Positions 4,674 to 52,567 of a DNA stretch of 64,000 nucleotides are shown here, piece after piece. The first letter of the stretch is position 1. Each line of letters starts with the position of its first letter. Below the pieces are notes generated by a model, which had not been told where the DNA came from, made no database searches, and worked only from the letters and a program-made list of their open reading frames with translations. Made by a program: the position numbers and the translations under genes. Source of the stretch: an uncultured Alphaproteobacteria bacterium (GTDB lineage Bacteria; Pseudomonadota; Alphaproteobacteria; HIMB59; GCA-002718135); the NCBI GenBank assembly GCA_902601455.1, contig CACKNC010000001.1:32240-96239 (forward strand), given 5' to 3'.

Positions 4674-5852
4674 ATGCAAGCTAAACAACGTTTTACTAAT
4701 GTAACTCTTGTTACCCCAATTGGTGAAAAAAACCAAGATCTGCTGGTCAAAGATGATCTTATTGTGGATATTGTTGACAGAGATTCTTCAGTAAGCGATG
4801 ATTTTGAAATTTATGATGGGCGAGATAACTATATTTTCCCTGGGATGATTGATGTCCTTCAGCATGGTTTTTTAAACTACTTGTATGGTCATGCTGAAGA
4901 AAATTGCGCAGTTGATAATGCAAAGCTTTTACCTGAGGTAGGTGTAACAGGTTTTTTACCGTCAACACCTTGCTTGCCTCCAGAACAAACACATGAACTT
5001 CTGAATAATTTATCAAATGATATTGATAAATCAAAAGAGGGAGCAAGAATTCTCGGTATACATTCTGAAGGACCATGCTTTGCTTTACCTGGTGCACATA
5101 ATCCAAAAAATTTGCGTAATCCATCTGAAGAATTAGCAGAAGAATTAATTGATGCAACACATGGTAAATTAAAGGCAGTAACTATTGCTCCTGAGATGGA
5201 AGGATCAGAGATTTTCATTAAGAGATTAAAAAAAGATAACATATCTATTCATTTAGGTCATAGTGGAGCGAAACCTGAAGATGTTCCTATGTTTGCCGAT
5301 TGGGGAGTGGATGCAGTCACTCATATGTATGATGCATTACCAACTTATCCAGCCGATGATACAGGCGTTCATGTACTTTCTTTGACTGATGCATTAATTG
5401 CTGAGCCACGCATTGCTCTTGGGTTAATATGTGATGGCATTCATGTTCATCCACAATTAGTTGAGCTATTATCTCATCTTCCAAGTGATAGAGTTTTCTT
5501 AGAAACTGACTCTGTTAAAGGGTCTGGTTCACCTGTTCCTGTAAAATTTGAATTTTATCCTGGTCGTTGGTGTACAGTAGAAAAAGGTAAAGCATCAACT
5601 TACGATGGTCTTTTAGCAGGATCATCTTTAACTTCTATAGAAGGATTACAAAATTATCTAAAATACTCAAAAAAATCAATTAGCCAAGTTTCTATTGCAG
5701 CTAGTTTGGTTCCTGCAAGAGTAATAGGATTAGATGATAAAATGGGGAGTATTGAAAAAAATAAATTTGCTGATTTTATTTTATTAAGAAAAAATGATTT
5801 AGAAATTGCAGAAACATTTATTGCGGGAAAGTCAGTTTACAAAAGTGATTGA
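4674..5852 (+). CDS. NagA-family amidohydrolase (N-acetylglucosamine-6-phosphate-deacetylase-like)
   Basis: Order of motifs: PGMIDVLQHG, GIHSEGPCF, TIAPE, HLGHSGA, VTHMYDAL, ICDGIHVHP. This matches the NagA metal/substrate motif order. An RBS (AGGAAGG) lies upstream. Confidence 0.65.
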   Translation: MQAKQRFTNVTLVTPIGEKNQDLLVKDDLIVDIVDRDSSVSDDFEIYDGRDNYIFPGMIDVLQHGFLNYLYGHAEENCAVDNAKLLPEVGVTGFLPSTPCLPPEQTHELLNNLSNDIDKSKEGARILGIHSEGPCFALPGAHNPKNLRNPSEELAEELIDATHGKLKAVTIAPEMEGSEIFIKRLKKDNISIHLGHSGAKPEDVPMFADWGVDAVTHMYDALPTYPADDTGVHVLSLTDALIAEPRIALGLICDGIHVHPQLVELLSHLPSDRVFLETDSVKGSGSPVPVKFEFYPGRWCTVEKGKASTYDGLLAGSSLTSIEGLQNYLKYSKKSISQVSIAASLVPARVIGLDDKMGSIEKNKFADFILLRKNDLEIAETFIAGKSVYKSD

Positions 5853-5898
5853 TAAAAATCCTATATCTTTACGTTATCGCGATAAAGGAAATGTGCAT

Positions 5899-6306
5899 AT
5901 GGATTTTCATGGTGCAACAAATACTACTATAAATTTTATTATAGAAAAATATGGCATTGAAACAATGAATGACATTTTTAAAAAAGTAGGAAATGATGTT
6001 TATGCAGATATTAAGAAACATATACAGTCTGGAAATATCAATATGTTGGCTGAACATTGGCAACATTTTTTTGATCGAGAGGGTGCTGATTTTTCTATAT
6101 CCATTAAAGAGAATGAGATTATTTTAACTGTTAAAAGATGCACTGCTTATGAACATGTTAAAAAATTAGTTGGAAAAGTATCGCCAAATTTTTGTGATCA
6201 AACCATTAAAACTAATGAAGCAATTGCAGAAGGTACGCCTTATGAAATAAAAACGGAAATTTTGGGCGAAGCTTCATGTAAACAAATTATTCGTAAAAGA
6301 TTATGA
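5899..6306 (+). CDS. Hypothetical small Cys-motif protein (paralogue of the next gene)
   Basis: The track ORF starts at 5806, inside the NagA-like gene. The ATG at 5899 (MDFHGATN..., AAGGAAA upstream) aligns with the N-terminus of the paralogue at 6303. Shared pattern: xW.H...E...D...L.(K/M)..C......C......C...(I/V)(R/F)K. Confidence 0.45.
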   Translation: MDFHGATNTTINFIIEKYGIETMNDIFKKVGNDVYADIKKHIQSGNINMLAEHWQHFFDREGADFSISIKENEIILTVKRCTAYEHVKKLVGKVSPNFCDQTIKTNEAIAEGTPYEIKTEILGEASCKQIIRKRL

Positions 6307-6785
6307 TACCAAGTGACCATTTTACCCGCTTCTATAATGAAGTATTTAAATTTTTAGAAAAGCAAGGTGAAGAAGATTTAAAGAAATATTGGTTAGAGAT
6401 TAGTAAAAATCAAGAAAAACATACATTGGAATTGTTTAAAGAAAAAGGTTTACAAGGTATGTATGAATATTGGGATCATATTCGAATAGAAGAAAATTGT
6501 GATTTGGATTTAAAATTAGAAGAAGATAATCTTGAATTAAAAATGAATGTTTGTCCAAGTTTAAGTAAGGTTTTGGACAATGATGCAGAACCGATGAAGA
6601 GGTATTGTGATCATTGTGCAGGATGGATAGGTCCTATTATGGATAAGGTTGGATACCACCTAGTATATGATGTGATAGATAGAAATCAACCCCGGTGCGT
6701 AGTTAAAATTTTTAAAGATAAAAAAAAGGCTTTAGAAGAAGAGAAAAATGCAAGACTCTTGATGGATTGGCCTGGTAAAAAATGA
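6303..6785 (+). CDS. Hypothetical small Cys-motif protein (CPS...CDHC...C)
   Basis: 160 aa with a 4-nt overlap with the previous gene. The C-terminal half (MNVCPSLSKV...RYCDHCAGWIGPIM...PRCVVKIFK) aligns by eye with the previous ORF. Confidence 0.5.
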   Translation: MIPSDHFTRFYNEVFKFLEKQGEEDLKKYWLEISKNQEKHTLELFKEKGLQGMYEYWDHIRIEENCDLDLKLEEDNLELKMNVCPSLSKVLDNDAEPMKRYCDHCAGWIGPIMDKVGYHLVYDVIDRNQPRCVVKIFKDKKKALEEEKNARLLMDWPGKK

Positions 6786-6787
6786 TT

Positions 6788-8134
6788 TTAAGGAAGTTGA
6801 CGTCTTGAAAAAATTAATTGTCTTAAAAAAGTTCTCACACCCATCGCTCCTTCTTCTTTTATCAAAATAAAAGCATTCATAGATACAACAATTATAAAAG
6901 CGCAAATTGCAAAAAGAACTTCATAACTTCCAAGAGTTTTACCAAAAACAACTATGTTATTAGTATCAAGCCAGAGTACTAGATAACCAGCTAAAACTGT
7001 TGTTATTCCTGCAATTAGTCCATCTAAACTATATGCAAGTGACATAAATGATTCTTTATTATTACTCGGTACATAATTTAACATAAAAATGTATCCAATA
7101 GAGGCGCTTCCCCACATTAAGAAGCCAAATAAAAAGAAAACTATTCCTATTACATAACTTAGATAGGGAGTTTCTGAATTTATAAATGGAAGCATTAATA
7201 ATAAAATAATCTGCAAGCTTTGAAATATTACTCTAATGCCTCGGCATCCATAGTTATCAGTTATCCTTCCTACAATAAAACCACTACATGTACCACCAAT
7301 CAAAACGAGCGTAGAAGAAAATATTAATTCTCCAGTGGGTATATTCATTCTAATTTTAAAAAAAAGTGTCAGGAATATTGCTAGCACGGTAATGACTAAA
7401 TATTGAGTACCGGATGAAATTAAAAATAAATTAAAATTTTTATCTTTTGAAGCTGAAAATAAATTTTTTAAATAACCAAGATCATTGTCTCGATTAACAA
7501 TTTTTTTCCCACCTTTAATTTTTATGAGCAGTAAAGCCGAAATAAAACCAGAAATAATTGCAATTATAAAAACAGGGTAAAATCTATCTAATCCCACTCT
7601 ACTATCAAGCCACATTTTAATTGCATAAGATGCTGCAAGTGCAAAAGGTGTGCAAATAATACCATTTATTCCAATAATTCTTCCTCTCACGTCACGCGGT
7701 ATAAATTCTTGCATCCAAGGAACAAAAGCTGCTTCTGATAGGGATCGACATATTGCAAACATTAGCATTGCAAAAAACAATAAATAAAAAACTACTAATA
7801 AGTTATTTTGATAAAGAGGAACTATTAAAAAAATTAAAAGAAAAATATATCGTGTAAATAGAGTAGTTATTGATACAAGCTTACTTCCAAAATAAAGTGT
7901 AATTGGGATACTGATTAATGCTAATACTTGGCAAAAAGCCATGAGACTTCCAAGAATGCCTATTTCATCAGAGCTTAATCCTAATTCTACTGAATACAGA
8001 GTAAGGGGAGCAGCTACTGTACCTATAACAGCACACATTTGGAGTGCCGTAGAGTAATGGTAATAATTTATAACTTTTAACTTTTCAGGTTCATTGGAAA
8101 TAAGCTTAAACATTTTTATGTTACTTACTAACAA
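6788..8134 (-). CDS. MFS-type transporter
   Basis: 448 aa with about 12 hydrophobic segments and a central loop (KGGKKIVNRDND). An alternative start is at 8113 (MFKLIS). It is the last gene of the minus-strand operon. Confidence 0.7.
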   Translation of the reverse strand: MLVSNIKMFKLISNEPEKLKVINYYHYSTALQMCAVIGTVAAPLTLYSVELGLSSDEIGILGSLMAFCQVLALISIPITLYFGSKLVSITTLFTRYIFLLIFLIVPLYQNNLLVVFYLLFFAMLMFAICRSLSEAAFVPWMQEFIPRDVRGRIIGINGIICTPFALAASYAIKMWLDSRVGLDRFYPVFIIAIISGFISALLLIKIKGGKKIVNRDNDLGYLKNLFSASKDKNFNLFLISSGTQYLVITVLAIFLTLFFKIRMNIPTGELIFSSTLVLIGGTCSGFIVGRITDNYGCRGIRVIFQSLQIILLLMLPFINSETPYLSYVIGIVFFLFGFLMWGSASIGYIFMLNYVPSNNKESFMSLAYSLDGLIAGITTVLAGYLVLWLDTNNIVVFGKTLGSYEVLFAICAFIIVVSMNAFILIKEEGAMGVRTFLRQLIFSRRQLP

Positions 8135-9209
8135 TAAATGATTTAATTACGTGTTGGTTATTTTCATAACACCAACAAGTTGCTAGTATTTCATTATTTT
8201 TAAGTCTTACAAGTGATGGTTGTCCAAATTTAAGACTCCCAAATTGCTTAGTGATATTTGTTGAGTCACTACTCATATTTTCGTCTTTAAATAAATCTAG
8301 CTCTTCTAAAATTTCAAATTTATTATTTTCAATATTTACTTTTCTTATTATTAGCCCAGTGGGAAACTCTCTATGAGAGTGAATTGTTAAGATTATATTT
8401 TTATCAAGCCACATTAAATTAGATGCTTGAGCTTTAACCCCAGTATCTATTGCAGTATCAAAACTTTCTCCACCATCGTGTGAATAAACAATATGATTAT
8501 TCAAATTTATTTTTTTTACATTATCATAAGTCCAAAAGATTACTGCCACACCATTATTGTCTATTTCACAAAGTCGACATTCCCAAGTAGCAATTTCACC
8601 TTTAGGAGTATTAAAAAATTCAGATAATTTACTCCAAGTTTTTCCATTATCATCACTGTAGATGATCCATCCAGAATGACCGTTTTCTCCTAAATGAAAA
8701 GGTGGGCATGCACCAAGTATTCTGCCAGAGGATAATTGGATACATGGCCCTGATAGTTCTAGCGGTTTTTCTAAAACACTAAAACTATTTGGTATAGTCC
8801 AGCTTTCACCATTATCGTTTGAAAAACTTATTTTATTTTTTAAAGGGAGCACTTCGAAAGAAATAGGATCGACAATTGGTGTAAGAGGATCGGGTCTTAT
8901 AAATGCATATCCAGTTGCTATAAGACTTCCGTTTTGTAACAACAAAGGTTTTAGCGTATCAGTTTCTTCATGGTTATCATATATATGATTGTGAAGCTGC
9001 ATTGGTGTTGACCAAGTTCTTCCATTATCTTTGCTTTTTGTTACATATGGTCTCTGGTCTGAAGAGTCGAATGCCTGACCAATTGAAAAAATTATTAGTA
9101 GATCATTATTTGGTAATAAACTGACACCGGGAAAAATTCCTTGTCGACTTACTAAAAGAGGGTCTGGATTTTGATATACTATTATTTCTTCCTTTTTTTT
9201 CATTTCCAT
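8121..9209 (-). CDS. BNR/Asp-box repeat protein, sialidase (GH33)-like beta-propeller, no signal peptide
   Basis: Four Asp-boxes: SKDNGRTWS, SNDNGESWT, SDDNGKTWS, SHDGGESF. The N-terminus MEMKKKEEIIVYQNPD is not a signal sequence. Confidence 0.75.
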   Translation of the reverse strand: MEMKKKEEIIVYQNPDPLLVSRQGIFPGVSLLPNNDLLIIFSIGQAFDSSDQRPYVTKSKDNGRTWSTPMQLHNHIYDNHEETDTLKPLLLQNGSLIATGYAFIRPDPLTPIVDPISFEVLPLKNKISFSNDNGESWTIPNSFSVLEKPLELSGPCIQLSSGRILGACPPFHLGENGHSGWIIYSDDNGKTWSKLSEFFNTPKGEIATWECRLCEIDNNGVAVIFWTYDNVKKINLNNHIVYSHDGGESFDTAIDTGVKAQASNLMWLDKNIILTIHSHREFPTGLIIRKVNIENNKFEILEELDLFKDENMSSDSTNITKQFGSLKFGQPSLVRLKNNEILATCWCYENNQHVIKSFIVSK

Positions 9210-10015
9210 TGACTCTCAAACTCTTGATGAAATTGAAATCCTCTAATAGGTGTTGCTTCTCCGCGAGGCTTTGGAGCTACTGGATTCAAAGTGTGTTTTT
9301 TAGAGCCTCTAGCAATTTGTACTGAAAAAAAAGGCCATTTATTAAGATCTGCTTTTACATGTGAAGGAGAATATCTAAAAGTTATACCACATCTTGGTCG
9401 ATCTGAAGAATTCGCATCAGATCCGTGCAAAAGAGCATCAGAGTGAAGAGATATCTCTCCTGCTATTAAATTCATAAAAACAATTTTATTTTTATTAATT
9501 TGATCATCGTCAACTTCTTGATTAAGGATATAATCACTGTTGTTGTTCTCAGTATGCAAATATTTTTTTATCTTATGACTACCTGAAACAATCTTCATTG
9601 CTGAATTATCCTTGTCTGTATCAAAAATTGCAAGCCAAACCGTTACTGAATTTGAAGGTTTTAAAGGCCAATACTGAGAGTCTTGATGCCAAGGAACAAT
9701 ACTTTTACTCAAGGCAGGTTTATAAAAAAATTGCCCACCCCACAAATAAAAATTTGGCCCAAGTAAATCTTCTACATAATCTAAAATTTCAGGAGTGTGT
9801 GCTACATCATAAAATTTTTTACTAGCCTTATGCCACATATTTGTTTTATTGATATCGACGCTACTAGGTAAACGTGTTTTTAATTCATTAAAAAGTAATT
9901 GTAATTCTTCTACCCCTCTTTCAGAAAAAACAGGTAGGTTCTTTATAAAGCCCTCACTATCATATTGAGAAATTTCAGATTTAGTTAACCTTCGAATATT
10001 TTTACTTATTTCCAT
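9200..10015 (-). CDS. PhyH-family Fe(II)/2-oxoglutarate dioxygenase
   Basis: VPWHQDSQYW gives the HxD motif, ISLHSDALLHGSDAN the distal His, and RCGITFRY the 2OG Arg. 271 aa. Confidence 0.75.
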   Translation of the reverse strand: MEISKNIRRLTKSEISQYDSEGFIKNLPVFSERGVEELQLLFNELKTRLPSSVDINKTNMWHKASKKFYDVAHTPEILDYVEDLLGPNFYLWGGQFFYKPALSKSIVPWHQDSQYWPLKPSNSVTVWLAIFDTDKDNSAMKIVSGSHKIKKYLHTENNNSDYILNQEVDDDQINKNKIVFMNLIAGEISLHSDALLHGSDANSSDRPRCGITFRYSPSHVKADLNKWPFFSVQIARGSKKHTLNPVAPKPRGEATPIRGFQFHQEFESQWK

Positions 10016-10862
10016 TATTGTAATCTGTTATTAATTTTTTAAATTTTATTAATTCTTTTTGATCAGCTAACACAGAATGTTTTTTTAAAGGAAATTTTTT
10101 AAAACTTACATCTGCCTGATATTTTTTAAATGCTTTAATTCTTTCTTTTTGAATATCTTGAAAAATTTTATCAAAATTTCTATAACTTTTTGCATGTCTT
10201 GGTGTTTTTGAAGAGTCATTGTGATAACCTAAAATATCTTCAGAAAATAAAAACTGTACATCACTTTTGCTTCCAGAACCTATAGATATAGTTAACATGT
10301 TAGTTATTTTGTTAATTTCAGCCAATATATCTGCTGGAATACACTCTACCTCTACAGCCCAGCATCCAATGTTTTCTAGTTCTTTAATTTCTTCATAAAT
10401 TTTAATGGCTTCTTTCAGTTTTTTTCCTACCGGTTTTACACCACCTGTCCAGGTAGATTTCATTGGAACAAATCCGACATGTCCTTGAAGAGGAATATTA
10501 AATTCACTGATGTATTTTATAAAATTTATATTCCATGAATTTGTATGAATGGAGTCTACGCCTAATTCAATTAGTTTAAAACATTTTCTAGCAATACTCT
10601 CTTTTGATTCATGTTCTGTATATTTAATGCCACAAGTTAGAAATGTATTTGGAGCAGCTTCACGAATTTCTTTTAATCTATCGGCACCTGTTATTAATAA
10701 ATCAATATCTGCTAATTCTGCTGCTGCTGCTTCCTCAGGCGTAATTACATTTATTTGTGTTAGTTTCGTTCTGCCCTTAAGTTCGAGTAAATCTTTGACA
10801 GTGTAGTTCCTATAACCTGCTTGATGAGCTAGTGAATATACTTTCTTGTATTTTTTTTTCAT
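10002..10862 (-). CDS. Divergent PanB (ketopantoate hydroxymethyltransferase) family protein, paralogue 1
   Basis: GHVGFVPMKSTWTGGVKPVGKK, EVECIP, ISIGSGSKSDVQFLFSEDILG and PRHAKSY align by eye with E. coli PanB GHLGLTPQS..GGYKVQGR, LECVP, IGIGAG..DGQILV.HD..G and PKFAKNF. Confidence 0.6.
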   Translation of the reverse strand: MKKKYKKVYSLAHQAGYRNYTVKDLLELKGRTKLTQINVITPEEAAAAELADIDLLITGADRLKEIREAAPNTFLTCGIKYTEHESKESIARKCFKLIELGVDSIHTNSWNINFIKYISEFNIPLQGHVGFVPMKSTWTGGVKPVGKKLKEAIKIYEEIKELENIGCWAVEVECIPADILAEINKITNMLTISIGSGSKSDVQFLFSEDILGYHNDSSKTPRHAKSYRNFDKIFQDIQKERIKAFKKYQADVSFKKFPLKKHSVLADQKELIKFKKLITDYNNGNK

Positions 10863-10865
10863 TTA

Positions 10866-11720
10866 TTAAATATTCACCTTTTGATTATGCAAAAATTTTC
10901 TAAAATTTATCAATTCTTTTTTTTCTAATGAAATTGAATGTTTTTTTGTTGGAAATTTATTTTTTTTAACATCCAATTTAAATTCTTTGAATGCGTTTAT
11001 CCTTTCTTTTTGAAGATTTTGCATTAGATTATCAAAATTCGCATATTGTTTTGCATGTCTTGGAAATTTTATTTGACTTTGACCTAATATATCTTCCGCA
11101 AATAAAAACTGCGCATCAGCAGCATTTCCTGAACCGATAGAAATAGTTACTAAAGATGTCATTTTTGTAATTTCTGCCAAAATATTTTCAGGCACTAGTT
11201 CTACTTCAATTCCCCATGCTCCTGTGTTCTCTATATCTTTAATATCTTTTAAAAGTTCCATTGCTTCTTTTGCTGTTTTGCCAAAAGATCGAATACCGCC
11301 AATCCAAGTTGTTCGTCTTGGTATAAAACCAACATGACTTTGAAAGGGAATTCTAAATTTACTTAAATGTGTCATCCAATCTAAATTCCAATTTTGGCAC
11401 ATCAAAGAGTCTGCACCAGCTTCTATGATTTCAAAAGCTTTTTTTGTTGCCTCTCGTTTTGATGGATTTTCAATAAATGGAACACCAACGGTCATAAACG
11501 TTTTGGCGGCAGCTTTTCTTATTTTATGTAATTCAGGACCAGGACCTGTCAGCAATAAATCTATTCCTGCTTCTTCAGCTGCAGCAGCTTCTTGGGGACT
11601 GGTAACTCTTACTTGGGAGAGTTTCTTTTTACCTTTTAATTCAATGATATCACGTACTGTATAATTACGGTACCCAAGATCATTGTTGATTGAAAAAACT
11701 CTTTTGTATTTTTTGTGCAT
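10866..11720 (-). CDS. Divergent PanB family protein, paralogue 2
   Basis: Roughly half of its positions match the neighbour by eye (YRNYTV+D++ELKG, EAAAAE, SHVGFIPRRTTWIGG, EVELVP, ISIGSGNAADAQFLFAEDILG, PRHAKQY). Confidence 0.6.
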   Translation of the reverse strand: MHKKYKRVFSINNDLGYRNYTVRDIIELKGKKKLSQVRVTSPQEAAAAEEAGIDLLLTGPGPELHKIRKAAAKTFMTVGVPFIENPSKREATKKAFEIIEAGADSLMCQNWNLDWMTHLSKFRIPFQSHVGFIPRRTTWIGGIRSFGKTAKEAMELLKDIKDIENTGAWGIEVELVPENILAEITKMTSLVTISIGSGNAADAQFLFAEDILGQSQIKFPRHAKQYANFDNLMQNLQKERINAFKEFKLDVKKNKFPTKKHSISLEKKELINFRKFLHNQKVNI

Positions 11721-11767
11721 AAAAATTATTCTATATTAATTTTTAACTAGATTTATAAATTTATTAA

Positions 11768-11789
11768 GTTATCATGTAAACATAATAAC
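11768..11789. promoter_or_regulatory. Candidate operator in the divergent promoter: imperfect palindrome GTTATCATGT-AA-ACATAATAAC
   Basis: 9 of 11 arm positions pair. The core ATGT..ACAT fits the generic GntR GT-N-AC operator theme. The right half plus one base (AAACATAATAACT, 11778..11790) recurs exactly at 24546..24558. Confidence 0.3.
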
Positions 11790-11807
11790 TAAAATCAACG
11801 TAAATAT

Positions 11808-12572
11808 ATGAATTTTACTGATAATAAAATAAAAGAAGATTTTAATTCAAATGGATATGCAGCAATTTATTCATTTTTTAATAACGATAAAATTCAAGAA
11901 ATTAAGAATGAAATAGATAGATATATAATTAACATAGTTCCAGCACTACCCAATCATCACGTTTTTTATGAAGATAAATCAGATAAAAGTACTATTAAAA
12001 ACCTTCAACAAATGTTTAACTACGATGATTACTTTAAAAAATTAATTGAAGAGAGTGCAATACAAGAAGTTGCTTCGTTTCTTTTGCAAGAAAAAGCAAT
12101 TCCTAAAAATTTACAATATTTTAACAAACCAGCTGGAGTGGGCAAACCAACACCACCGCATCAAGATGGATATTATTTTATGTTAAAGAAACACAACGCC
12201 GTAACTTGTTGGCTAGCTCTCGAAAAAGTTGATGAAGAAAATGGATGTATCCATTATGTTAAAGGTTCTCATTTAAAGGAAGAATATAGACCTCATGGTA
12301 AATCAAATATACTTGGATTTTCCCAAGGTGTGACTGATTTTGGTACTAATGATGATAAGCTCAATACTGTTTCATTTCCAGGTGAAGCAGGGACTTTCCT
12401 TATACACAATGCTAAAACTATACACTGGGCGGAAGGTAATAAATCTCAAACGAGAACTAGAAAAGCTCTTGGTTTTATATATTATGGAGAGAGCGCAGAA
12501 GAAGATAAGGTAGCACATGAGGCGTATCAACTTAAATTGCGCAAAGAATTGGAACAAAAAAATTTAATATGA
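11808..12572 (+). CDS. PhyH-family Fe(II)/2-oxoglutarate dioxygenase, paralogue A
   Basis: PTPPHQDGYYF gives the HxD motif, FLIHNAKTIHWA the distal His, and RTRKALGFIY the Arg. 254 aa. Confidence 0.75.
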   Translation: MNFTDNKIKEDFNSNGYAAIYSFFNNDKIQEIKNEIDRYIINIVPALPNHHVFYEDKSDKSTIKNLQQMFNYDDYFKKLIEESAIQEVASFLLQEKAIPKNLQYFNKPAGVGKPTPPHQDGYYFMLKKHNAVTCWLALEKVDEENGCIHYVKGSHLKEEYRPHGKSNILGFSQGVTDFGTNDDKLNTVSFPGEAGTFLIHNAKTIHWAEGNKSQTRTRKALGFIYYGESAEEDKVAHEAYQLKLRKELEQKNLI

Positions 12573-13345
12573 ACCTAGAATTCAATATTCCTAACATGGT
12601 TGATTTAAAAAAATCCTATGATGAAGATGGTTATAATCACATCCCTGAATTATTCTCTGCTAGTGACATGGACATTCTTAATAAAGAGTTTAATCGATAT
12701 ATAAAAGACTGCGTCCCTATGATGAAAGACCAAGAAGTGTATTATGTTGATAAATCAAATAAAGATACTTTGATGCAAATGCAAAAATTAGAGGAGTATG
12801 ATAACTTTTTTCATGAATTATTTTTTAATAGTAAAATTAAAGATCTTGCAGCAAATGCCTTAGGGGAAGATGTTGTGCCAAGAGCGATGGAGTATTTTAA
12901 TAAACCTCCAGGTAAGAGTAATCCCACACCTCCCCATCAAGATGGATATTATTTTAATTTAGATAATGATAAAGCTGTTACTGGTTGGTTAGCATTAGAA
13001 GATGTTGATGATGAAAATGGTTGTATTCACTATGTAAAAGGCTCACACAAACATGAATATAGACCTCATGGCAGATCTGAAATATTAGGTTTTTCACAAG
13101 GTGTAACCGACTTTGGTACTGAAGAAGATAAAAAAAATACAGTAAAGTTTGAGGGAAAAGCAGGCATGTTTTTAATGCATGATGCTAAAATTATACATTT
13201 TGCCAGTTCAAACAAATCATCGGTTCGTACTAGAAGGGCTTTTGGTTTTGTTTATCATGGTGTCTCAGCAAAGCATGATGTAGAAAAAGGAAAAGCCTAT
13301 CAAAAAAAATTACATGATGAGCTGAAAGAAAAAAAAATAATCTAA
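12569..13345 (+). CDS. PhyH-family Fe(II)/2-oxoglutarate dioxygenase, paralogue B
   Basis: PTPPHQDGYYF, ENGCIHYVKGSH, GFSQGVTDFGT and FLMHDAKIIHFA closely parallel the upstream gene. 4-nt overlap. Confidence 0.75.
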   Translation: MNLEFNIPNMVDLKKSYDEDGYNHIPELFSASDMDILNKEFNRYIKDCVPMMKDQEVYYVDKSNKDTLMQMQKLEEYDNFFHELFFNSKIKDLAANALGEDVVPRAMEYFNKPPGKSNPTPPHQDGYYFNLDNDKAVTGWLALEDVDDENGCIHYVKGSHKHEYRPHGRSEILGFSQGVTDFGTEEDKKNTVKFEGKAGMFLMHDAKIIHFASSNKSSVRTRRAFGFVYHGVSAKHDVEKGKAYQKKLHDELKEKKII

Positions 13346-13348
13346 TTT

Positions 13349-14269
13349 ATGAAAAATAGAAAAGTGTATATTTCAGGAGATTTAGTGCCTGATAGTGAAG
13401 CTAAGATATCTATTTATGACAGTGCTGTTTTATTAGGTGACACAGTGACAGAATCAACACGTACATTTAATTATAAACCTTTTAAATTAATTGAGCATGT
13501 AGACCGATTATATAAATCTTTAAAATTGACCCGTATTGATCCAGGCATGACTAAAGATGAAATGATCGAAGTAAGTGAAAATTTGCTTGCAGTAAATAAA
13601 GAAACATATGGTGATAATGAAGATTGTTGGTTAGTTCATAATATCTCAAGAGGGTTATCAATTACAGGTGGCAATCCTACTCTGCAGGTAAGTAAGGCAA
13701 CTATCATGATTTATACCCAGCCAATGATTTTACTCCCTTGGGCTAAATTTTACAAAGAAGGATGTCATGCTGTTACTCCGTCAAGCAGAGTAATACCATC
13801 TCAATCTTTAGATCCACGTCTTAAAAATAGAAGTCGACTATTTTATACTTTGGGAGAGATGGAGGCTAAGCTAGTTGATCCTGATGCACAAAGTATAATG
13901 CTTGATATCCATGGAAATGTTGCTGAAAACAAGGGGGGCAATATATTTATAGTCAGAGATGGTAAATTAATTACACCTACTACAGCTAACTGCTTAGAAG
14001 GTTTAACACGTGCCACAACAATTGAAGTTGCTAAATCATTAAATATTGAGGTCATTGAAGCAGTTATTCAACCCTATGATTTATCGACTGCAGATGAGTT
14101 ATTTATGACAAGTACTCCTTATTCAATAATGCCAGCTACTAAATATAACGGTCTGACAATAGCTGATGGAAAAGTAGGCCCAATCACTAAAAAATTACTT
14201 CAAGGTTGGAGTGATAGAGTGGGATTAGATATAGTGAAGCAAGCAGAAGATCAGCTTCACATACATTAA
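13349..14269 (+). CDS. Class IV (fold type IV) aminotransferase, branched-chain / D-amino-acid aminotransferase family
   Basis: ISIYDSAVLLGDTVTE..RTF..KPFKLIEHVDRLYKS, KNRSRL, EGLTRATTIE and ADELFMTST are characteristic class IV motifs. Confidence 0.8.
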   Translation: MKNRKVYISGDLVPDSEAKISIYDSAVLLGDTVTESTRTFNYKPFKLIEHVDRLYKSLKLTRIDPGMTKDEMIEVSENLLAVNKETYGDNEDCWLVHNISRGLSITGGNPTLQVSKATIMIYTQPMILLPWAKFYKEGCHAVTPSSRVIPSQSLDPRLKNRSRLFYTLGEMEAKLVDPDAQSIMLDIHGNVAENKGGNIFIVRDGKLITPTTANCLEGLTRATTIEVAKSLNIEVIEAVIQPYDLSTADELFMTSTPYSIMPATKYNGLTIADGKVGPITKKLLQGWSDRVGLDIVKQAEDQLHIH

Positions 14270-14273
14270 CTTA

Positions 14274-15191
14274 ATGACTATTTTAGAAAGACCCGAGGGA
14301 ATTTGGGGTGCAATTTTATTACCAGTAAAAGATGATAAAATAGATTGGGTTGCTTTCGAAGAACAGGTCAATATTTTATGTGACTCAAGTGTGCATGGCA
14401 TTTATACTAATGGAACAGCAGCAGAATGTCATAATCAAACTGAAGATGAGTTTGATAAATTATCAAATATAGTTTCAACGATAGCTATAAAAAAAAATAA
14501 AAAATTTCAATTAGGTTTAAGTCACACAAATCCGCGTATTTGTCGTGAGAGAGCAAAAAGATTAACTCCGCTAAAACCTGATGGTTTTCAAATAACACTA
14601 CCTGATTGGTGGCCACCAACTTATCAAGAGTCTCTAAATTTTATTATGGGAATGCAGGAAGTTGTGGAAGATACATATCTAATTTTATACAATCCCCCGC
14701 ACGCAAAAGTATTACTTAGTCTGGAAGAAATTTCACAGATGAATGATAAAGCACCAAATCTTATAGGAATAAAATGTGCAGGTGGAGATGAGGCATGGTA
14801 TGAAAAAAGAAGATATTTATTGGGTAATTTTTCTGTTTTTGTTCCTGGCCATAGTGTAGTTTTTGGAAAACCACTTGGTGCCAATGGGTCATACTCAAAC
14901 GTTGCATGCTTTAGCCCAAATGGAGCTGTAAAGATATGGGATTTAATTGATACGGATTTTGAAAAAGCTAAACAAATTGAAAGTAGAATTGTTAATTTTA
15001 TGAAAACACACATTCTTCCGCTTGCAACTAGATTATCTAATACGGGTTTGGATAAATTACTTGCTTGTGTAGGAGGGTGGGGACCAATTTCAGAAAAAGT
15101 ACTATGGCCTTATGAAGGAGCAACATTAGACGAGGTAAATAAAATAAGAGATATTGCTAAGAAAGAACTACCAGAGTTGATGAATGACTAA
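14274..15191 (+). CDS. DapA/DHDPS-family class I (Schiff-base) lyase
   Basis: GIWGAILLPVKDD.IDW.AFEEQVN.L....VHGIYTNGTAAE and IGIKCAGGD (candidate Schiff-base Lys). 305 aa. Confidence 0.65.
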   Translation: MTILERPEGIWGAILLPVKDDKIDWVAFEEQVNILCDSSVHGIYTNGTAAECHNQTEDEFDKLSNIVSTIAIKKNKKFQLGLSHTNPRICRERAKRLTPLKPDGFQITLPDWWPPTYQESLNFIMGMQEVVEDTYLILYNPPHAKVLLSLEEISQMNDKAPNLIGIKCAGGDEAWYEKRRYLLGNFSVFVPGHSVVFGKPLGANGSYSNVACFSPNGAVKIWDLIDTDFEKAKQIESRIVNFMKTHILPLATRLSNTGLDKLLACVGGWGPISEKVLWPYEGATLDEVNKIRDIAKKELPELMND

Positions 15192-16671
15192 AAAAATTTT
15201 TCTTTCAGGAATTTATCACGAAACACATACATTTTTAAGCCAACCTACAACTTTGAATGATTTTATAATTAATATTGGTGATGATATTATTAGAGAAAAC
15301 AAAGGCAATGGCTCACCTACTGATGGTTTCATTGAGTTTGCTTTACAAAAAAACTGGGATATTATTTCAGGAATACAGATGTCTGCAAGACCTTCTGGAA
15401 TAGTAGATGAGGATGCTGAGAATTTTTTTGATACAAATTTTTTTGAAAAATTAGAGCAACATTGCGAAAATATTGATGCAATTTTTTTAATTCTTCATGG
15501 AGCTATGGTTAGTAAAAATCATGATGATTTTGAAGGTGACTTTTTAGAAAAAATTAATCATATTTTAAAGAAAAGAAAAATTACTATTCCAGTGGTGGCT
15601 GTTTTAGATCTTCACGCCAATGTATCTAATAAAATGATTGAAAATAGTAGCTGTGTATATGCTTATAGAAAAAATCCTCACAGTGATTCAAGAGATGCAG
15701 CAATTAAGGCTGCTATAATATTAAATGATTTATTTGATAATTCAAAAGTCAGTCAAGTTAACTATCAAACTAAATATATTTTACCCCCAACAGGTGTGGG
15801 AACAGCGAACGATCCTATGAAATCAGTTTTATTTGAAGCAAATAGAATAGAAAAAAGTGACAAAGATATTATTTGTATTAACGTAATGGCTGGTTACTCT
15901 TATGCTGATATTGCTGATTGTGGTTTTAGTTTAAATTGCTGCACAAAGGGAGATTTAAAAGTTGCAAAAAATTATTTAGTATCCCTTGCTAATGTTCTTG
16001 AAGAAAAAATAAATTTTGGGTACCCTAAAGAAAATACTTTAGAAGAAGTATTAGAAAAAATTAAATCACTACCTGTATTAGATAAACCAATACTACTTAT
16101 TGAGCCTGCAGATAATATTGGAGGAGGTACACCGGGAGATGCAACAGATTTACTAAGTCGTTTATTGGATTCTAACCAAGAGGGAATTGTAGCAATAATT
16201 AATGACCCTGAATCTGCTAAGTATTGTCATCAGCATAATGTAGGTTATGAAATAGGGCTTAATATTGGTGGAAAATTTGATGATTTTCATGGAGCACCAA
16301 TTAAATTAAAAGCTACAATTCAAAAATTATCAAATGGGAAATTTACTCTAAAAAATAAACAATCTCATTTGGCATCCATGATGGGAATGAATATAGATAT
16401 GGGATTATCAGCTGTGGTAAAAAACAAACAACTAACATTATTGTTAACATCAATTAAGACACCTCCAATGGATTTAGGGCAGTTAATTTCACAAGATATT
16501 TCACCAGAAGATGCAAAATTAATAGTCATCAAAGCTGCTGTATCCCATAAAGATGCTTATGATCCAATTGCCTCTCATAGTTTTTATATTGATAGTCAGG
16601 GGTTGTGCACGAGTAATCTCAAAAGATTACCATTCAAAAAAATTGGTAATAAAATTATTTCCCTAAATTAA
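15184..16671 (+). CDS. MlrC-like (M81 family) metallopeptidase
   Basis: 495 aa. The N-terminus IFLSGIYHETHTF matches the MlrC N-terminal HETNTF motif; LILHGAMV and LDLHAN are also present. 8-nt overlap with the previous gene. Confidence 0.7.
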   Translation: MTKKIFLSGIYHETHTFLSQPTTLNDFIINIGDDIIRENKGNGSPTDGFIEFALQKNWDIISGIQMSARPSGIVDEDAENFFDTNFFEKLEQHCENIDAIFLILHGAMVSKNHDDFEGDFLEKINHILKKRKITIPVVAVLDLHANVSNKMIENSSCVYAYRKNPHSDSRDAAIKAAIILNDLFDNSKVSQVNYQTKYILPPTGVGTANDPMKSVLFEANRIEKSDKDIICINVMAGYSYADIADCGFSLNCCTKGDLKVAKNYLVSLANVLEEKINFGYPKENTLEEVLEKIKSLPVLDKPILLIEPADNIGGGTPGDATDLLSRLLDSNQEGIVAIINDPESAKYCHQHNVGYEIGLNIGGKFDDFHGAPIKLKATIQKLSNGKFTLKNKQSHLASMMGMNIDMGLSAVVKNKQLTLLLTSIKTPPMDLGQLISQDISPEDAKLIVIKAAVSHKDAYDPIASHSFYIDSQGLCTSNLKRLPFKKIGNKIISLN

Positions 16672-24603: not shown

Positions 24604-25602
24604 TTACGTATTATCTGCTTTTTTAAGTTTCAACCTATTTTTCATTTTTTCATGTAACTCTGTTGATCCATCATGATAAGTTCCAAACCATTGATCAAAT
24701 GGTATCATAAGATTTCCATAATTAACTTCGAAATATTTATGATGGAGATAGTGATTATAGTTACTAAGATCGATTGCACGTTTATCATTTATGAGCATTT
24801 GTTTGAAACCTATATGACCATTAGCTGAGCCAAGACCTGCATGATATAAATGATAAATAGCATGAAGTGGATGGGAAAGCACAATCCAATGAATCACAAC
24901 TCCAGAAAAGTATAACAGATGTTCAATTGGATGCATTGAAAGACTAGACCAGGGTCCTGGATTAATATTTCTATGATGAACTGAGTGTGCAATTTTATAC
25001 ATAAAACTTAAATGTAAAAACCGGTGTACTAAATAAAAATGAGCATCTCTAAAAGCAGGTATTAATAAAAGTATTAATATAAAATAAAATGGAGACTCAC
25101 TAAATTTAACAAATGGTATTATTCCAGAGGCATAAAACCACAATGATAAAACTTCATAAGCTGTCCAAATAGGAACGCCCCAAAATAAACTCCAAAATAA
25201 ATTATCAAAAATTTGCCTATTAAAAGTAAATATCTTTTGTATTTTTTCAGGCCAATTAGGATTAAACTTAAATTTTATTCCTTGTATTTTACTTACATAC
25301 AGTGGGATATGTATAAGACTAAAAAAAATTGTTCCAATTACATAATTTCGTAGAAGAATTTCAGCAATCCATCCGATTGAAAATGTTTTCATCTCTGAAA
25401 TAGAAGGAGTGAAAAAGTAATATGCTATAAAAGCAACTAATAGATAGAAAAGATTCCATGAAAATATATATGAGAATACAAACCAATTAAAAATTTTTTT
25501 TATATTCAATGGCAGCAACCAGAGAGGGTTTCTATCAGCTGCTTCTTTTGGAACAAAATGGCCTCTTTTATCCCTATATCCAAATTGATTTTCTTCTATC
25601 AT
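24604..25602 (-). CDS. Fatty-acid hydroxylase / sterol desaturase superfamily membrane protein
   Basis: Histidine boxes HFYLVHRFLH, HSVHHRN and HYLHHKYFEVNYG. Several TM segments. Confidence 0.75.
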   Translation of the reverse strand: MIEENQFGYRDKRGHFVPKEAADRNPLWLLPLNIKKIFNWFVFSYIFSWNLFYLLVAFIAYYFFTPSISEMKTFSIGWIAEILLRNYVIGTIFFSLIHIPLYVSKIQGIKFKFNPNWPEKIQKIFTFNRQIFDNLFWSLFWGVPIWTAYEVLSLWFYASGIIPFVKFSESPFYFILILLLIPAFRDAHFYLVHRFLHLSFMYKIAHSVHHRNINPGPWSSLSMHPIEHLLYFSGVVIHWIVLSHPLHAIYHLYHAGLGSANGHIGFKQMLINDKRAIDLSNYNHYLHHKYFEVNYGNLMIPFDQWFGTYHDGSTELHEKMKNRLKLKKADNT

Positions 25603-25858: not shown

Positions 25859-26407
25859 TTAATTAAATAAATTACTATTTAATATCCTCCAATATTGGTT
25901 AACTAAGGGTTGATAAAATTTATTTTTGTAAATTTCTAAATTATAAATGCCCCATATATTTTCTTTTAATATCCACCCATTAATTTTTTTATATCTTACT
26001 TTGCACCAAAACAAAACGCATCTTTTAAGATCTAAAATATTATTTTTTTTAATTTCTCCTATGACTTTTCCATTTGGTCTGTTGAAGAGTTTTATTACAT
26101 TGTCATTTTTATAACCTGTCAGAACATATCTATCTCCTTTAATCAAACTTTTGTGCAACCAACCTACAGTTCCCATATGATCCCTTGTTTTTCTCCATGT
26201 CTCAAACTCATCAATTATTTCTACAGGTAAATTTTGTGTAACATATCTAAGGTGAATAGGATAATTTGTGCTTGGTCCAACACGTAAGTTAACTTCATTT
26301 GATTTTAGTGAAACAAATCTGGGTATTTCTAATCCGGTGACAGATCCAGATTTTGCATATAAATTATAACTAATTAAAAAAAACAAAATTAAAGAGATTA
26401 TTTTCAT
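25859..26407 (-). CDS. Secreted bacterial SH3-domain protein (DUF1058-type)
   Basis: True start at MKIISLILFFLISYNLYA (signal peptide). IPRFVSLKSNEVNLRVGPSTNYPI...PVEI..E...WRK.RD..G..GWLHKSL matches the alphaproteobacterial SH3/DUF1058 pattern. The track ORF extension to 26629 runs antisense through tRNA-Arg. Confidence 0.65.
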   Translation of the reverse strand: MKIISLILFFLISYNLYAKSGSVTGLEIPRFVSLKSNEVNLRVGPSTNYPIHLRYVTQNLPVEIIDEFETWRKTRDHMGTVGWLHKSLIKGDRYVLTGYKNDNVIKLFNRPNGKVIGEIKKNNILDLKRCVLFWCKVRYKKINGWILKENIWGIYNLEIYKNKFYQPLVNQYWRILNSNLFN

Positions 26408-26475
26408 TCTTAAATTTATCTTATAACATTTTAACCATTTGATGTTATTACTTATTGTATATATTAAAAAAATAT

Positions 26476-26552
26476 GCGCCCGTAGCTCAATTGGATAGAG
26501 CGCCAGACTACGGATCTGGAGGTTAGGAGTTCGACTCTTCTCGGGCGCGCCA
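26476..26552 (+). tRNA. tRNA-Arg (anticodon ACG), CCA encoded
   Basis: Acceptor stem GCGCCCG/CGGGCGC, D-arm GCTCAATTGGATAGAGC, anticodon stem CCAGA/TCTGG with loop CTACGGA, T-arm AGGAGTTCGACTCTTCT, then G-CCA. Confidence 0.9.
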
Positions 26553-26681
26553 GCAAACGTGCGGAATTTATCTACTGTTCCGTTTTGAAAATTCCTATTC
26601 GGAACACTTCTGGAACACTTCGCATTCAAAAATTACCTTTTAAGTCTCAACTTTTATTGTAGTTAGTGGTAAGATATTTTG

Positions 26682-42322: not shown

Positions 42323-43660
42323 ATGATTAAACATGTTACATCAGTGGATCAATCAGACAGAAAGGTCCCATATAATCTAAGGCAGAGTGGTTCTACACCT
42401 GTACAAATGTTAATTTCTACACGAGTTAGAAAATCTCCATATTGGCATCTTTCTATGGAAGCTGGTTGTTGGAGAGCAACTGTTTATAATCGTATCTACC
42501 ACCCAAGAGGATATGTTAAGCCAGAAGATGGCGGGGCAATGGTTGAGTATGAGGCAATTAAAAATCACGTTACTATGTGGAACGTTGCAGTTGAAAGACA
42601 AATTCAAGTTAAGGGACCGGATGCGGAAGCTTTTACTGATTATGTCATCACCAGAGATGCAACGAAAATTTCTCCAATGAGAGCAAGATATGTAATTCTC
42701 TGTAATCAGTACGGAGGTGTTCTTAACGACCCGATATTGTTAAGAATTTCAAAAGATGAATTTTGGTTTAGTTTATCTGACAGTGACATTGGTTTATATC
42801 TTCAAGGCGTTAACCACGATAATAGGTTTGATGTTACTATTGATGAAATTGATGTTTCTCCTGTTCAGATACAGGGTCCAAAATCTCTTGCATTAATGAA
42901 AGATTTAATTGGCGATCAAGTAGAATTAGATAATATGCCATTTTATGGACTTGCTTCAGCTAAAGTAGGAGGTAGGGATTGTATAATATCACAATCAGGT
43001 TTCTCTGGAGAAGCGGGTTATGAGATTTATCTAAGAGACTCTACTTTATATGCTGATGATATGTGGAACGCTGTTCTTGAAGCAGGAAAAAAACACAATT
43101 TAATGGTTATTGCCCCTGCTCACCATAGAAGAATTCAAGCTGGTATATTGTCATGGGGTCAAGATATGGATAATCAACACAATCCTTTTCAGTGTAATTT
43201 AGGATATCAAGTCTCTTTATCAGGAAAAGGTGAGTGGAACAAAACTGCTGATTATGTTGGAAAAGAAGTTCTTGAGAAAATGAGAGATGATTTGAGAGCA
43301 GGAAATAAACCGTATCAATTACAGCTTGTTGGGTTATCCTTAGGTGGCAAACCAATTGAAGAATACGCCCCAGATTTTTGGTTAATTTCTGAAGATGGGA
43401 AAGATCCATGTGGCTTTATTACTTCACCTTGGTATCATCCAGAGCAAGGAAGAAATATTGCGATGGGATATGTACCATTTGATGGCTCATTGAGTAAAAA
43501 TGGTTTTCCTATTGGTAAGGTTGGGACTAAATATAAAGTTCATCTTCCTGATCAATACTGTGATACACCAGGTGTCCCTGTGGATGCTGAAGTAGTATCA
43601 GTGCCTTTCACTGAGTCTTTTAATGCTAATACAAGAGAAGTTTCAGGAGCAAACGAGTAA
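42323..43660 (+). CDS. Aminomethyltransferase (GcvT) family protein, DmdA-like tetrahydrofolate-dependent demethylase candidate
   Basis: V.VKGPDA..F......RD, GGVLNDPILLR, EFWFSLSDSD, VSPVQIQGPKS, SGFSGEAGYEIY and RRIQAGILSWGQDM. 445 aa. Confidence 0.7.
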   Translation: MIKHVTSVDQSDRKVPYNLRQSGSTPVQMLISTRVRKSPYWHLSMEAGCWRATVYNRIYHPRGYVKPEDGGAMVEYEAIKNHVTMWNVAVERQIQVKGPDAEAFTDYVITRDATKISPMRARYVILCNQYGGVLNDPILLRISKDEFWFSLSDSDIGLYLQGVNHDNRFDVTIDEIDVSPVQIQGPKSLALMKDLIGDQVELDNMPFYGLASAKVGGRDCIISQSGFSGEAGYEIYLRDSTLYADDMWNAVLEAGKKHNLMVIAPAHHRRIQAGILSWGQDMDNQHNPFQCNLGYQVSLSGKGEWNKTADYVGKEVLEKMRDDLRAGNKPYQLQLVGLSLGGKPIEEYAPDFWLISEDGKDPCGFITSPWYHPEQGRNIAMGYVPFDGSLSKNGFPIGKVGTKYKVHLPDQYCDTPGVPVDAEVVSVPFTESFNANTREVSGANE

Positions 43661-51988: not shown

Positions 51989-52567
51989 TTAATCAATAAA
52001 CTGATTACAACCATCTAATAATAAATCTCTCAAATAGGTTGTATGAGATCTATTTACATGAATATCAAAACTTTGAATGTCTTTATCATGATGGTTACGA
52101 ATTATAAGTATAGGTATTTTGACAAAAATTGTTTGTGCAACTCTTAAATTACTATTTAGAGCATTATCAATGTCAATAACCATAAATTTTTTAAGCAATT
52201 CTGAAGTATTGTAACCTTCTATTCTAATAATAGTTTTATTTTCAGAAATATCTGTAACACTTGTTTTTTCAGGATTTAGCTTAATATTTAATTCTTCAAA
52301 GATTTTTAAAAAATGATCATTATTTAAAAAGCTTACAAGCCATTCATTTGGGCTTAACCATATTACTTGAAAATCTGTATTTTGAATTTTTGAATTCGGC
52401 TCTGTTGGAATTACAATGTCTAGGATGGAGCCAGTATTACTCATAAACTCCCTATCTTTTGAATTACCACGAAGATTAATTTTTCCTACAAATGGTAACT
52501 CTTTTATAGTGATGCCATTTTTTTTAATTGTTGAAACTTCTAGTACTTTGTTTCTCTTTAGATTCAT
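51989..52567 (-). CDS. soxG: Sarcosine oxidase gamma subunit
   Basis: 192 aa, immediately downstream of soxA with a 4-nt overlap. Position and size match soxG; the sequence itself is weakly diagnostic. Confidence 0.65.
   Translation of the reverse strand: MNLKRNKVLEVSTIKKNGITIKELPFVGKINLRGNSKDREFMSNTGSILDIVIPTEPNSKIQNTDFQVIWLSPNEWLVSFLNNDHFLKIFEELNIKLNPEKTSVTDISENKTIIRIEGYNTSELLKKFMVIDIDNALNSNLRVAQTIFVKIPILIIRNHHDKDIQSFDIHVNRSHTTYLRDLLLDGCNQFID

Follow-up and report, generated by a model that had tools for sequence, protein, structure and literature searches.

Ancestral PanB, the ketopantoate hydroxymethyltransferase (EC 2.1.2.11), uses 5,10-methylene-tetrahydrofolate (5,10-methylene-THF). 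A divergent relative has been described in Rhizobium etli CFN42, whose 'second panB', RHE_PE00443, lies on plasmid p42e; five of the 12 residues of the active site could be recognised in it, but a metal-binding domain could not (Villasenor et al. 2011, PMC3082293). Despite this gene, an R. etli panB mutant is a pantothenate auxotroph, and constitutive expression of RHE_PE00443 does not complement it (PMC3082293). In our literature search it was the sole characterised PanB-like paralogue found. Here we analyse two tandem genes of the same kind, par1 and par2, in a 64,000-nucleotide stretch of DNA from an uncultured alphaproteobacterium (contig CACKNC010000001.1, positions 32,240 to 96,239; the whole stretch is called the window below).

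Sequence and profile comparisons place par1 and par2 in a widespread sister family derived from PanB; they are very probably not ketopantoate hydroxymethyltransferases. The family is routinely misnamed PanB: its annotated members are called 3-methyl-2-oxobutanoate hydroxymethyltransferase by PGAP and carry the Gene Ontology term for pantothenate biosynthesis. Gene neighbourhood shows them instead in catabolic operons, beside O2-dependent hydroxylases.

Active site of the two PanB-like proteins

Both proteins match Pfam PF02548 (par1 114.6 and par2 131.1 bits, threshold 28.7), over profile positions 68-258 of 259 only. The match establishes homology to PanB and is silent on function. Neither protein passed the panB equivalog TIGR00222 (84.7 bits for par1 and 99.7 for par2, cut-off 207.55) or NF001452 (100.1 and 118.6 bits, cut-off 272). 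Compared with solved PanBs (1m3u, 3vav, 3ez4, 1o66 and 1oy0), phmmer gave E values of 1e-10 to 1e-18, with alignments that start only at about residue 66 and cover the C-terminal three quarters. When E. coli PanB was aligned by MAFFT with only the two paralogues, the N-terminus was misaligned, and hhalign was used instead: a 28-member family alignment was set against canonical PanBs (probability 100%, 252 columns, full-length) and the residues were then indexed. E. coli PanB numbering is used below unless stated otherwise.

In this mapping, G44 corresponds to G59 in both paralogues, and the differences begin directly after it. D45 is replaced by P60 in par2 and by a gap or A60 in par1, and S46 by G61 and D61, respectively. 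E. coli residues M49-H68, in the beta2-alpha2 loop, are deleted (20 residues in par2, 21 in par1), and with them the GDSxxM...G.xxT..VT substrate loop is lost from both proteins. D84 becomes G79 in par2 and G78 in par1; K112, M107 and H106; E114, Q109 and N108, where the following GG is lost as well. Two residues are kept and invariant in the family: H136 (H129 in par2, H128 in par1) and E181 (E174 and E173).

None of phmmer, MAFFT and profile-profile alignment recovers Asp45, Ser46, Asp84, Lys112 or Glu114. Loss of the Mg ligands holds across 50 representatives and 156 family members, and because the pattern is common to all 156 aligned members it is not due to chance. As read from the alignments, the Mg/2-oxoacid half-site of PanB is gone, the His136/Glu181 half and the GxGxG and D..Q motifs are kept, and Glu172 and His222 (par2 numbering) are new and invariant. 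The first-pass annotation, made from the DNA letters alone, had proposed that both proteins lack the canonical metal and catalytic residues, and all three methods bear this out. Every motif pair that it had quoted, C-terminal and N-terminal, is reproduced by the hhalign mapping, and its estimate of about 20 missing residues agrees with the deletion; the profile alignment, which it had named as a check on itself, left the metal ligands and Lys112 unrecovered. It was right that Glu181 is kept but not that only Glu181 is, as His136 is also conserved.

In the AlphaFold2 model of par2 (pLDDT 94.4, pTM 0.85) the (beta/alpha)8 barrel is complete, alpha2 is shortened (residues 64-70) and the N-terminus bears an additional beta-hairpin; such a hairpin, of about 20 residues, occurs in some family members, par1 and par2 included. 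When the model was compared with the PDB by Foldseek, PanBs were the sole close matches (E 1e-13 to 5e-17, TM 0.67-0.73, 20-25% identity). DAHP synthases and proteins of the isocitrate lyase/phosphoenolpyruvate mutase (ICL/PEPM) group followed as distant matches at E ~1e-6, the methylisocitrate lyases and PEP mutases with TM 0.44-0.52. The acidic divalent-metal ligands of that group, at the ends of beta2-beta4, are absent in par1 and par2. Both genes are under strong purifying selection, with dN/dS values against SAR11 relatives of 0.06-0.09 for par2 and 0.10-0.11 for par1.

A short-loop family derived from PanB

An exhaustive HMMER search of 1.84 billion representatives returned 66 clusters (50% identity) at E<1e-30. 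They are mostly full-length and 33-44% identical, and all but a few, which have a long loop, have the deletion in common. The family motifs are GADA[IV]Y-C/T, GH[VL]G[LF][VI]P, vE.E.[VI]P, S[LMI]G[SA]G...D.Q[YF]LF and PRHAK. In par2 numbering, H129, E172, E174, D202, D210 and H222 are 100% conserved in the 156 aligned members; in place of E172 and H222, E. coli PanB has Leu and Phe. Among the family-specific residues (E172, D202, D210, R221, H222) par2 also keeps R221. No acidic residue stands at positions 45, 84 and 114 and the beta2-alpha2 loop is deleted, in par1 and par2 as in the family. Both paralogues carry every family-invariant residue, and for this reason both copies look catalytically competent.

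The family ranges over SAR11, Rhodobacterales, rhizobia, Betaproteobacteria, Acidimicrobiia and Chloroflexi. The GTDB genome set (Rhodobacterales, Hyphomicrobiales, Acidimicrobiia, Betaproteobacteria and Caldilineaceae) contributed at least 586 loci. Metagenomes, for the most part marine and of low GC, contributed at least 434, and the family is also carried by 280 plasmids or chromids, chiefly of Rhizobium and Sinorhizobium. The locus scans used narrow alignment subsets, and the fetched loci over-represent two subclades.

Most relatives of par1 and par2 are single-copy. The two genes are about 52% (51-52%) identical and lie in tandem on the minus strand, par1 downstream of par2 with a gap of 3 nt, and this tandem arrangement and spacing are conserved in close relatives. 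Par1 is closer to some single-copy genes (67-74%; P0271/P0272 73-74%) than to par2 (51%), and par2 is closest to a group linked to FA_hydroxylase (61-64%). The pair is therefore not a recent local duplication, each member being closer to single-copy genes elsewhere than to its neighbour.

Several homologues (P0158, P0183, P0195, P0237, P0141, P0138 and P0154) have a long beta2-alpha2 loop and yet are without Asp45, Asp84 and Glu114; P0237 retains Lys112. They suggest that canonical PanB and the short-loop family are linked by graded intermediates. One 542-residue candidate for a fused double PanB-like protein (P0124) was rejected: a single sequence is repeated in it exactly, head to tail, so that a circular or mis-assembled contig is far likelier than a natural fusion, and it gives no evidence for the heteromer that the first-pass annotation had raised as a possibility.

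Oxygenases in the neighbourhood of PanB-like genes

The family recurs beside five oxygenase families, namely mocDEF-type FA_desaturase, FA_hydroxylase, PhyH, TauD and 2OG-FeII_Oxy_5, an association that is new here. Oxygenase components made up 38/302 genes at gene distance 1-3 from the PanB-like gene and 7/575 at a distance of at least 4, and in a second locus set 22/297 within three genes and 0/194 further away, both counts being uncorrected for shared ancestry. In the window, one PhyH gene overlaps par1 and two more are divergent from par2 (Table 1). Four SAR11 relatives (L086-L089, 87% identical to par2) conserve the operon of two PanB-like genes, PhyH, BNR_2 and MFS, and likewise the divergent operon of two PhyH genes, aminotransferase, DHDPS and MlrC. 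The PhyH gene that overlaps par1 is 33% identical to PhyH genes adjoining PanB-like genes in marine metagenome loci. The best solved relatives of the three PhyH enzymes are ectoine hydroxylase, EvdO2, MysH and an uncharacterised monooxygenase, which do not indicate the substrate.

Elsewhere the partner changes. Other low-GC marine relatives are single-copy; some have FA_hydroxylase (PF04116) directly downstream, in another context TauD adjoins the gene, and in yet another 2OG-FeII_Oxy_5 does, PterinBD-DUF4346 being close by. Among single-copy genes, the one closest to par1 (74%; L170-L172) lies near PterinBD-DUF4346, a SOUL haem-binding protein, a TonB-dependent receptor and 2OG-FeII_Oxy_5. 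FA_hydroxylase and PanB-like genes are paired in SAR11-like, Comamonadaceae, Phaeobacter and Bradyrhizobium loci; on the Phaeobacter and Bradyrhizobium plasmids the oxygenase is annotated 'sterol desaturase family', and the Bradyrhizobium locus also has a Rieske protein and an FAD reductase. On Phaeobacter inhibens plasmid pDOK1-1-2 (L176, 6295-8777) the unit is LysR-controlled and consists of an 'inositol oxygenase family' protein (207 aa), a sterol desaturase family protein and the PanB-like protein; it looks like a mobile module, since insertion sequence elements and recombinase genes flank it.

A further operon type has LacI followed by an FA_desaturase-family membrane oxygenase, a Rieske ferredoxin, an FAD reductase and, as its last gene, the PanB-like gene. 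It was seen in Rhodobacterales, R. etli, Sinorhizobium meliloti pSymB and a Caldilineaceae contig, often in an inositol-type context (MocA-type dehydrogenase, IolE-like TIM barrel, IolD-like thiamine pyrophosphate enzyme, sugar ABC transporter, LacI). In S. meliloti 1021 the three genes before the PanB-like gene are annotated mocD, mocE and mocF (SM_b20818-20820; PMC11387232).

In a second marine clade, two FA_desaturases or PhyH are neighbours in some contexts. The commonest arrangement there (L095-L160, marine metagenome, ~32% GC) is a triad in which DUF1907 and a 137-aa unknown accompany the PanB-like gene; on its flanks are genes for an ApbA/PanE-like reductase, a distant PhyH-like protein, an HpcH aldolase and an aldehyde dehydrogenase. 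The human 3-dehydro-L-gulonate decarboxylase C11orf54 belongs to the DUF1907 family (PMC12337341). A ketopantoate-reductase-family gene beside a 'PanB' that is no PanB sets a further annotation trap for pantothenate pathway calls. Three small neighbours were compared, namely the 137-aa protein (c1), a 133-aa open reading frame (ORF) in L083 and, in L170, the DUF4346 pterin-binding-associated protein; they do not form one family.

Association with folD and purU and a proposed role

All fetched loci were screened for FolD and PurU by tblastn. In four unrelated lineages folD and/or purU lies directly beside the PanB-like gene, an adjacency that is also new here. The fullest case is a Comamonadaceae locus (L077) with FA_hydroxylase, PanB-like, MocA-type dehydrogenase, PurU and FolD in this order on one strand. 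In Oceanospirillaceae (L072) the PanB-like gene is followed by FolD, and in a betaproteobacterium (L066) and in Acidimicrobiia (L046) PurU is divergent from it. In three further loci PurU lies within 9 kb. Together, FolD and PurU convert 5,10-methylene-THF to formate and free THF, and their genes are typical companions of THF-coupled demethylases; plasmid p42e of R. etli offers an example in its block dmm-aminomethyltransferase-folD-purU-sox.

We propose, with a probability of about one half, that the family is a Mg-independent, THF-dependent acceptor of the hydroxymethyl/formaldehyde unit released by oxidative demethylation. Hydroxylation of the substrate at an O- or N-methyl group, by the partner oxygenase, would come first. 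Whereas PanB delivers a hydroxymethyl group to an Mg-bound enolate, its relative, working without Mg or a 2-oxoacid, would then pass the hydroxymethyl/formaldehyde unit to THF, giving 5,10-methylene-THF, which FolD and PurU would oxidise to formate while regenerating THF. In the SAR11 island of the window, the partners would be the three PhyH dioxygenases, and the substrate would presumably be imported by the MFS transporter or a nearby ABC transporter. More tentatively, and at somewhat less than even odds, the family may form an unrecognised class of THF-dependent hydroxymethyl/formaldehyde transferases that couples O-/N-demethylation by membrane di-iron (MocD-type, FA_hydroxylase) and Fe/2-oxoglutarate (PhyH, TauD) oxygenases to the folate C1 (one-carbon) pool.

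Several points weigh against this proposal. Binding of THF by the family is inferred from PanB ancestry and from the folD/purU adjacency in L077, L072, L066 and L046; to our knowledge the THF site of PanB is structurally undefined, which makes retention of a 'THF half-site' an assumption, and a paper on folate cleavage by PanB gave no information on that site. Neither folD nor purU adjoins par1/par2 or the PanB-like genes of the other SAR11 loci. In its commonest context the second clade, with DUF1907, ApbA/PanE, HpcH and aldehyde dehydrogenase as neighbours, speaks for the chemistry of keto-sugar acids and not for the capture of C1 units. The subgroups are deeply diversified (33-45% identity between them) and some replicons carry two or three copies; substrate-specific enzymes therefore fit better than a generic formaldehyde trap, which these two observations weaken. 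The neighbourhood counts are phylogenetically non-independent, and the demethylase role of MocDEF is reportedly a genetic and bioinformatic proposal.

Alternative functions

That par1 and par2 are genuine housekeeping PanBs, divergent in sequence and with a relocated metal site (for example Asp61 of par1 for Asp45), is scarcely credible. The PF02548 match, the PGAP name and the Asp two residues after Gly59 in par1 would fit, as would the absence of any canonical panB from the 64-kb window, the extent of the tblastn search. Set against this are equivalog scores below half of the cut-off, the absence of four of the five catalytic or metal residues from both paralogues and family-wide, and Asp61 itself, which is not conserved in the family, even in par2. 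The two genes, moreover, sit in a catabolic operon, and their neighbours are PhyH, BNR_2, MFS and aminotransferase genes, with no pan genes among them. The R. etli homologue RHE_PE00443 (NC_007765, 488817-489632), which carries the family signature and aligns throughout with par1 and par2, is unable to replace panB. Rhizobia with the family also have canonical panCB, which in Sinorhizobium is chromosomal (PMC3082293), so that family and true panB co-exist there. A Pelagibacter preprint that gives ketopantoate reductase as the variable pantothenate step leaves panB unmentioned and is uninformative for this genome. The first-pass annotation had judged the genes unlikely to be housekeeping panB, which the ligand loss, the operon and RHE_PE00443 support, and had taken them for a probable neofunctionalised branch of the PanB/ICL-PEPM fold; this also stands, with PanB as the closest solved structures, ICL/PEPM proteins only distant and the ligands unrecovered. 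It is somewhat easier to conceive, though improbable, that the proteins are non-catalytic pseudoenzymes, acting as a scaffold, chaperone or regulatory subunit for oxygenases or as ligand-binding proteins. All canonical metal ligands and Lys112 are lost and the genes are tightly paired with oxygenases, but selection on them is strong and purifying, and new, strictly invariant polar residues at the barrel end, together with the Glu181/His136 equivalents, argue for retained catalysis; partners from five unrelated oxygenase families are also hard to square with a specific scaffold.

Two further readings keep a ligand or a reaction. A helper in pterin or electron supply, binding reduced pterin as a cofactor donor or recycler for di-iron oxygenases, would recall the tetrahydrobiopterin-dependent alkylglycerol monooxygenase of the FA_hydroxylase family, itself a frequent direct neighbour; a PterinBD-DUF4346 gene lies two genes away in one locus, and PanB ancestry implies a pterin-type ligand. 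We consider it very unlikely: the MocD-type and Bradyrhizobium FA_hydroxylase operons bring their own Rieske ferredoxin and FAD reductase, the PhyH and TauD partners, as users of 2-oxoglutarate, can do without an external reductant, and the folD/purU link points to C1 flow rather than redox cycling. A folate-free C-C lyase, aldolase or isomerase, the main rival of our proposal, is possible, if on balance doubtful. It would act, for example by retro-aldol cleavage or tautomerisation, on a hydroxylated carbonyl compound derived from a sugar, inositol or amino acid and made by the oxygenase, and would use a Glu172/His222/His129/Glu174 cluster, possibly as a new metal site. The new invariant acidic and His residues in place of the old site are what such an enzyme would show, and so are deep subgroups that each have their own context and oxygenase type, neighbours such as DUF1907, the ApbA-like reductase, HpcH aldolase, iol-type genes and MocA-type dehydrogenase, and multiple copies per replicon (three places on one plasmid, and the tandem pair here). 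It leaves the folD/purU adjacency in four unrelated lineages unexplained, however; the retained PanB residues border the C1 unit, not the site that binds the carbonyl substrate, and the lost Mg site is normally required for enolate chemistry in this superfamily.

Organisation of the window

The window has a G+C content of ~31%, and the closest matches of its proteins bear the names Pelagibacteraceae or Alphaproteobacteria bacterium; it is therefore SAR11-like. The features around the gene pair are collected in Table 1.

Table 1 Genes and intergenic region around par1 and par2, in window coordinates
Feature	Position	Strand	Basis or remark
MFS transporter, last operon gene	6788..8134	-	conserved in SAR11 relatives
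BNR_2 sialidase-like beta-propeller protein	8121..9209	-	overlaps neighbours by 10 and 14 nt
PhyH-family Fe(II)/2-oxoglutarate dioxygenase	9200..10015	-	start overlaps par1 end by 14 nt
par1, PanB-like protein, 286 aa	10002..10862	-	ORF call, PF02548
par2, PanB-like protein, 284 aa, first operon gene	10866..11720	-	ORF call, PF02548
AT-rich divergent intergenic region, 87 bp, between par2 and PhyH pair (presumed promoter region)	11721..11807	.	sequence only
Two tandem PhyH dioxygenases, 254 + 258 aa, head of divergent operon	11808..13345	+	
Class IV aminotransferase, DHDPS-family protein, MlrC/M81-like peptidase; rest of divergent operon	13349..16671	+	
FA_hydroxylase, membrane di-iron oxygenase	24604..25602	-	13 kb from PanB-like pair

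Par2, par1, PhyH, BNR_2 and MFS form a five-gene operon, as the last three genes overlap their neighbours by 10-14 nt. On the other side of the intergenic region, the divergent PhyH genes (11808-12572 and 12569-13345) are tandem paralogues, 52.6% identical. This divergence is about that of the PanB-like pair, which makes two co-inherited PanB-like/PhyH modules possible. In one relative (L089), the two divergent operons are set apart by the insertion of an additional sugar ABC transporter and a second BNR protein.

The FA_hydroxylase of the window is 40-46% identical to those that adjoin PanB-like genes elsewhere (SAR11-like, Comamonadaceae and other loci); its link to par1 and par2 is uncertain on account of the distance between them. 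It stands just before tRNA-Gln (25725) and tRNA-Arg (26476). An SH3-domain ORF with a TTG start (25859-26629, minus strand) overlaps the tRNA-Arg gene of the opposite strand (26476-26552, plus strand), and its true start is probably further downstream.

Positions 1-25600 read as a catabolic island that ends at the tRNA genes. It encodes an HpcH aldolase, a D-serine-dehydratase-like protein, an SDR, an amidohydrolase, two DHDPS-family proteins, class III and IV aminotransferases, the MlrC-like peptidase and a Dpp/Opp-type ABC transporter. Two adjacent small ORFs on the plus strand (5806-6306 and 6303-6785; 166 and 160 aa) have no Pfam match; they are weakly alike (E 2e-4), and a CDHC motif occurs in the second. 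In L086-L088 the same place beside the amidohydrolase is taken by two ORFs of comparable size, likewise without Pfam match.

GcvT-like genes of the aminomethyltransferase family and a SoxA-like sarcosine oxidase alpha gene occur at 42323-43660 and 44382-46817 (plus strand) and at 52564-55539 (minus strand), the SoxA-like protein with 41% identity over 1002 aa in tblastn with R. etli proteins. Genes of classical THF-coupled demethylation thus lie 30-40 kb from par1 and par2.

Discussion

Misannotation of this family can hide real vitamin B5 auxotrophies in metabolic reconstructions, which matters for SAR11 ecology. Within the ICL/PEPM/PanB superfamily, a conserved barrel that has shed the Mg/keto-acid half-site and kept the C1 half-site clearly exemplifies the re-tooling of an active site. 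If folate does capture the C1 unit, this would explain how several classes of formaldehyde-releasing oxygenases avoid poisoning the cell and conserve the C1 unit, and it would give a testable function to the gene that follows mocF in S. meliloti and R. etli, two organisms with good genetics. In rhizobia the protein would fill the place of a missing fourth component in mocDEF-type operons. SAR11 and roseobacters would have in it an unaccounted route by which the methyl groups of methylated sugars, inositols or nitrogenous osmolytes are oxidised for energy. The family would also be a TIM-barrel analogue of the GcvT-fold C1 acceptors.

Compared with PanB itself (E. coli 1M3U, M. tuberculosis 1OY0, Burkholderia 3VAV/3EZ4, Neisseria 1O66), the family has the same (beta/alpha)8 fold and shares H136, E181, GxGxG, D209, D217 and the P227..AK231 motif. 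It differs in the loss of the TAYD motif of beta1 and in that its genes are not clustered with panC, panD or panE.

The closest described relatives are RHE_PE00443 and the S. meliloti pSymB gene that follows SM_b20820 (mocF). They have the same signature as par1 and par2: the short loop, GxDAVYC, GH[LV]GL[IV]PSK.TWTGG, E.E.VP, S/GMGAG..CDAQYLF and PRHAK. They are ~37% identical to par1 and par2 and single-copy, and their partners are a mocDEF-type three-component membrane di-iron oxygenase and LacI, whereas par1 and par2 are partnered by PhyH. The non-PanB nature of one rhizobial member was thus already in the literature; the association with oxygenases and with folD/purU is new.

The commonest alphaproteobacterial partner operon of the family is the one annotated mocD, mocE and mocF, after the MocDEF ferredoxin oxygenase system proposed to demethylate the rhizopine 3-O-methyl-scyllo-inosamine. 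We know of no PanB-like component in the published moc model. The SAR11 window is without mocDEF, and PhyH enzymes are the partners there.

The proposed functional analogues are the GcvT-fold modules that accept C1 units on THF: dimethylglycine oxidase, sarcosine oxidase alpha, the C-domain of trimethylamine N-oxide demethylase and DmmD of dimethylamine monooxygenase. Their aminomethyltransferase fold is unlike the TIM barrel of the PanB-like proteins and there is no sequence similarity between the two, so the likeness would be one of working only. The genes of GcvT-fold acceptors accompany folD/purU and the gene of an oxidase or oxygenase whose reaction yields a formaldehyde equivalent, as in the dmm-folD-purU-sox block of R. 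etli p42e, and the Comamonadaceae locus L077 appears to follow the same logic.

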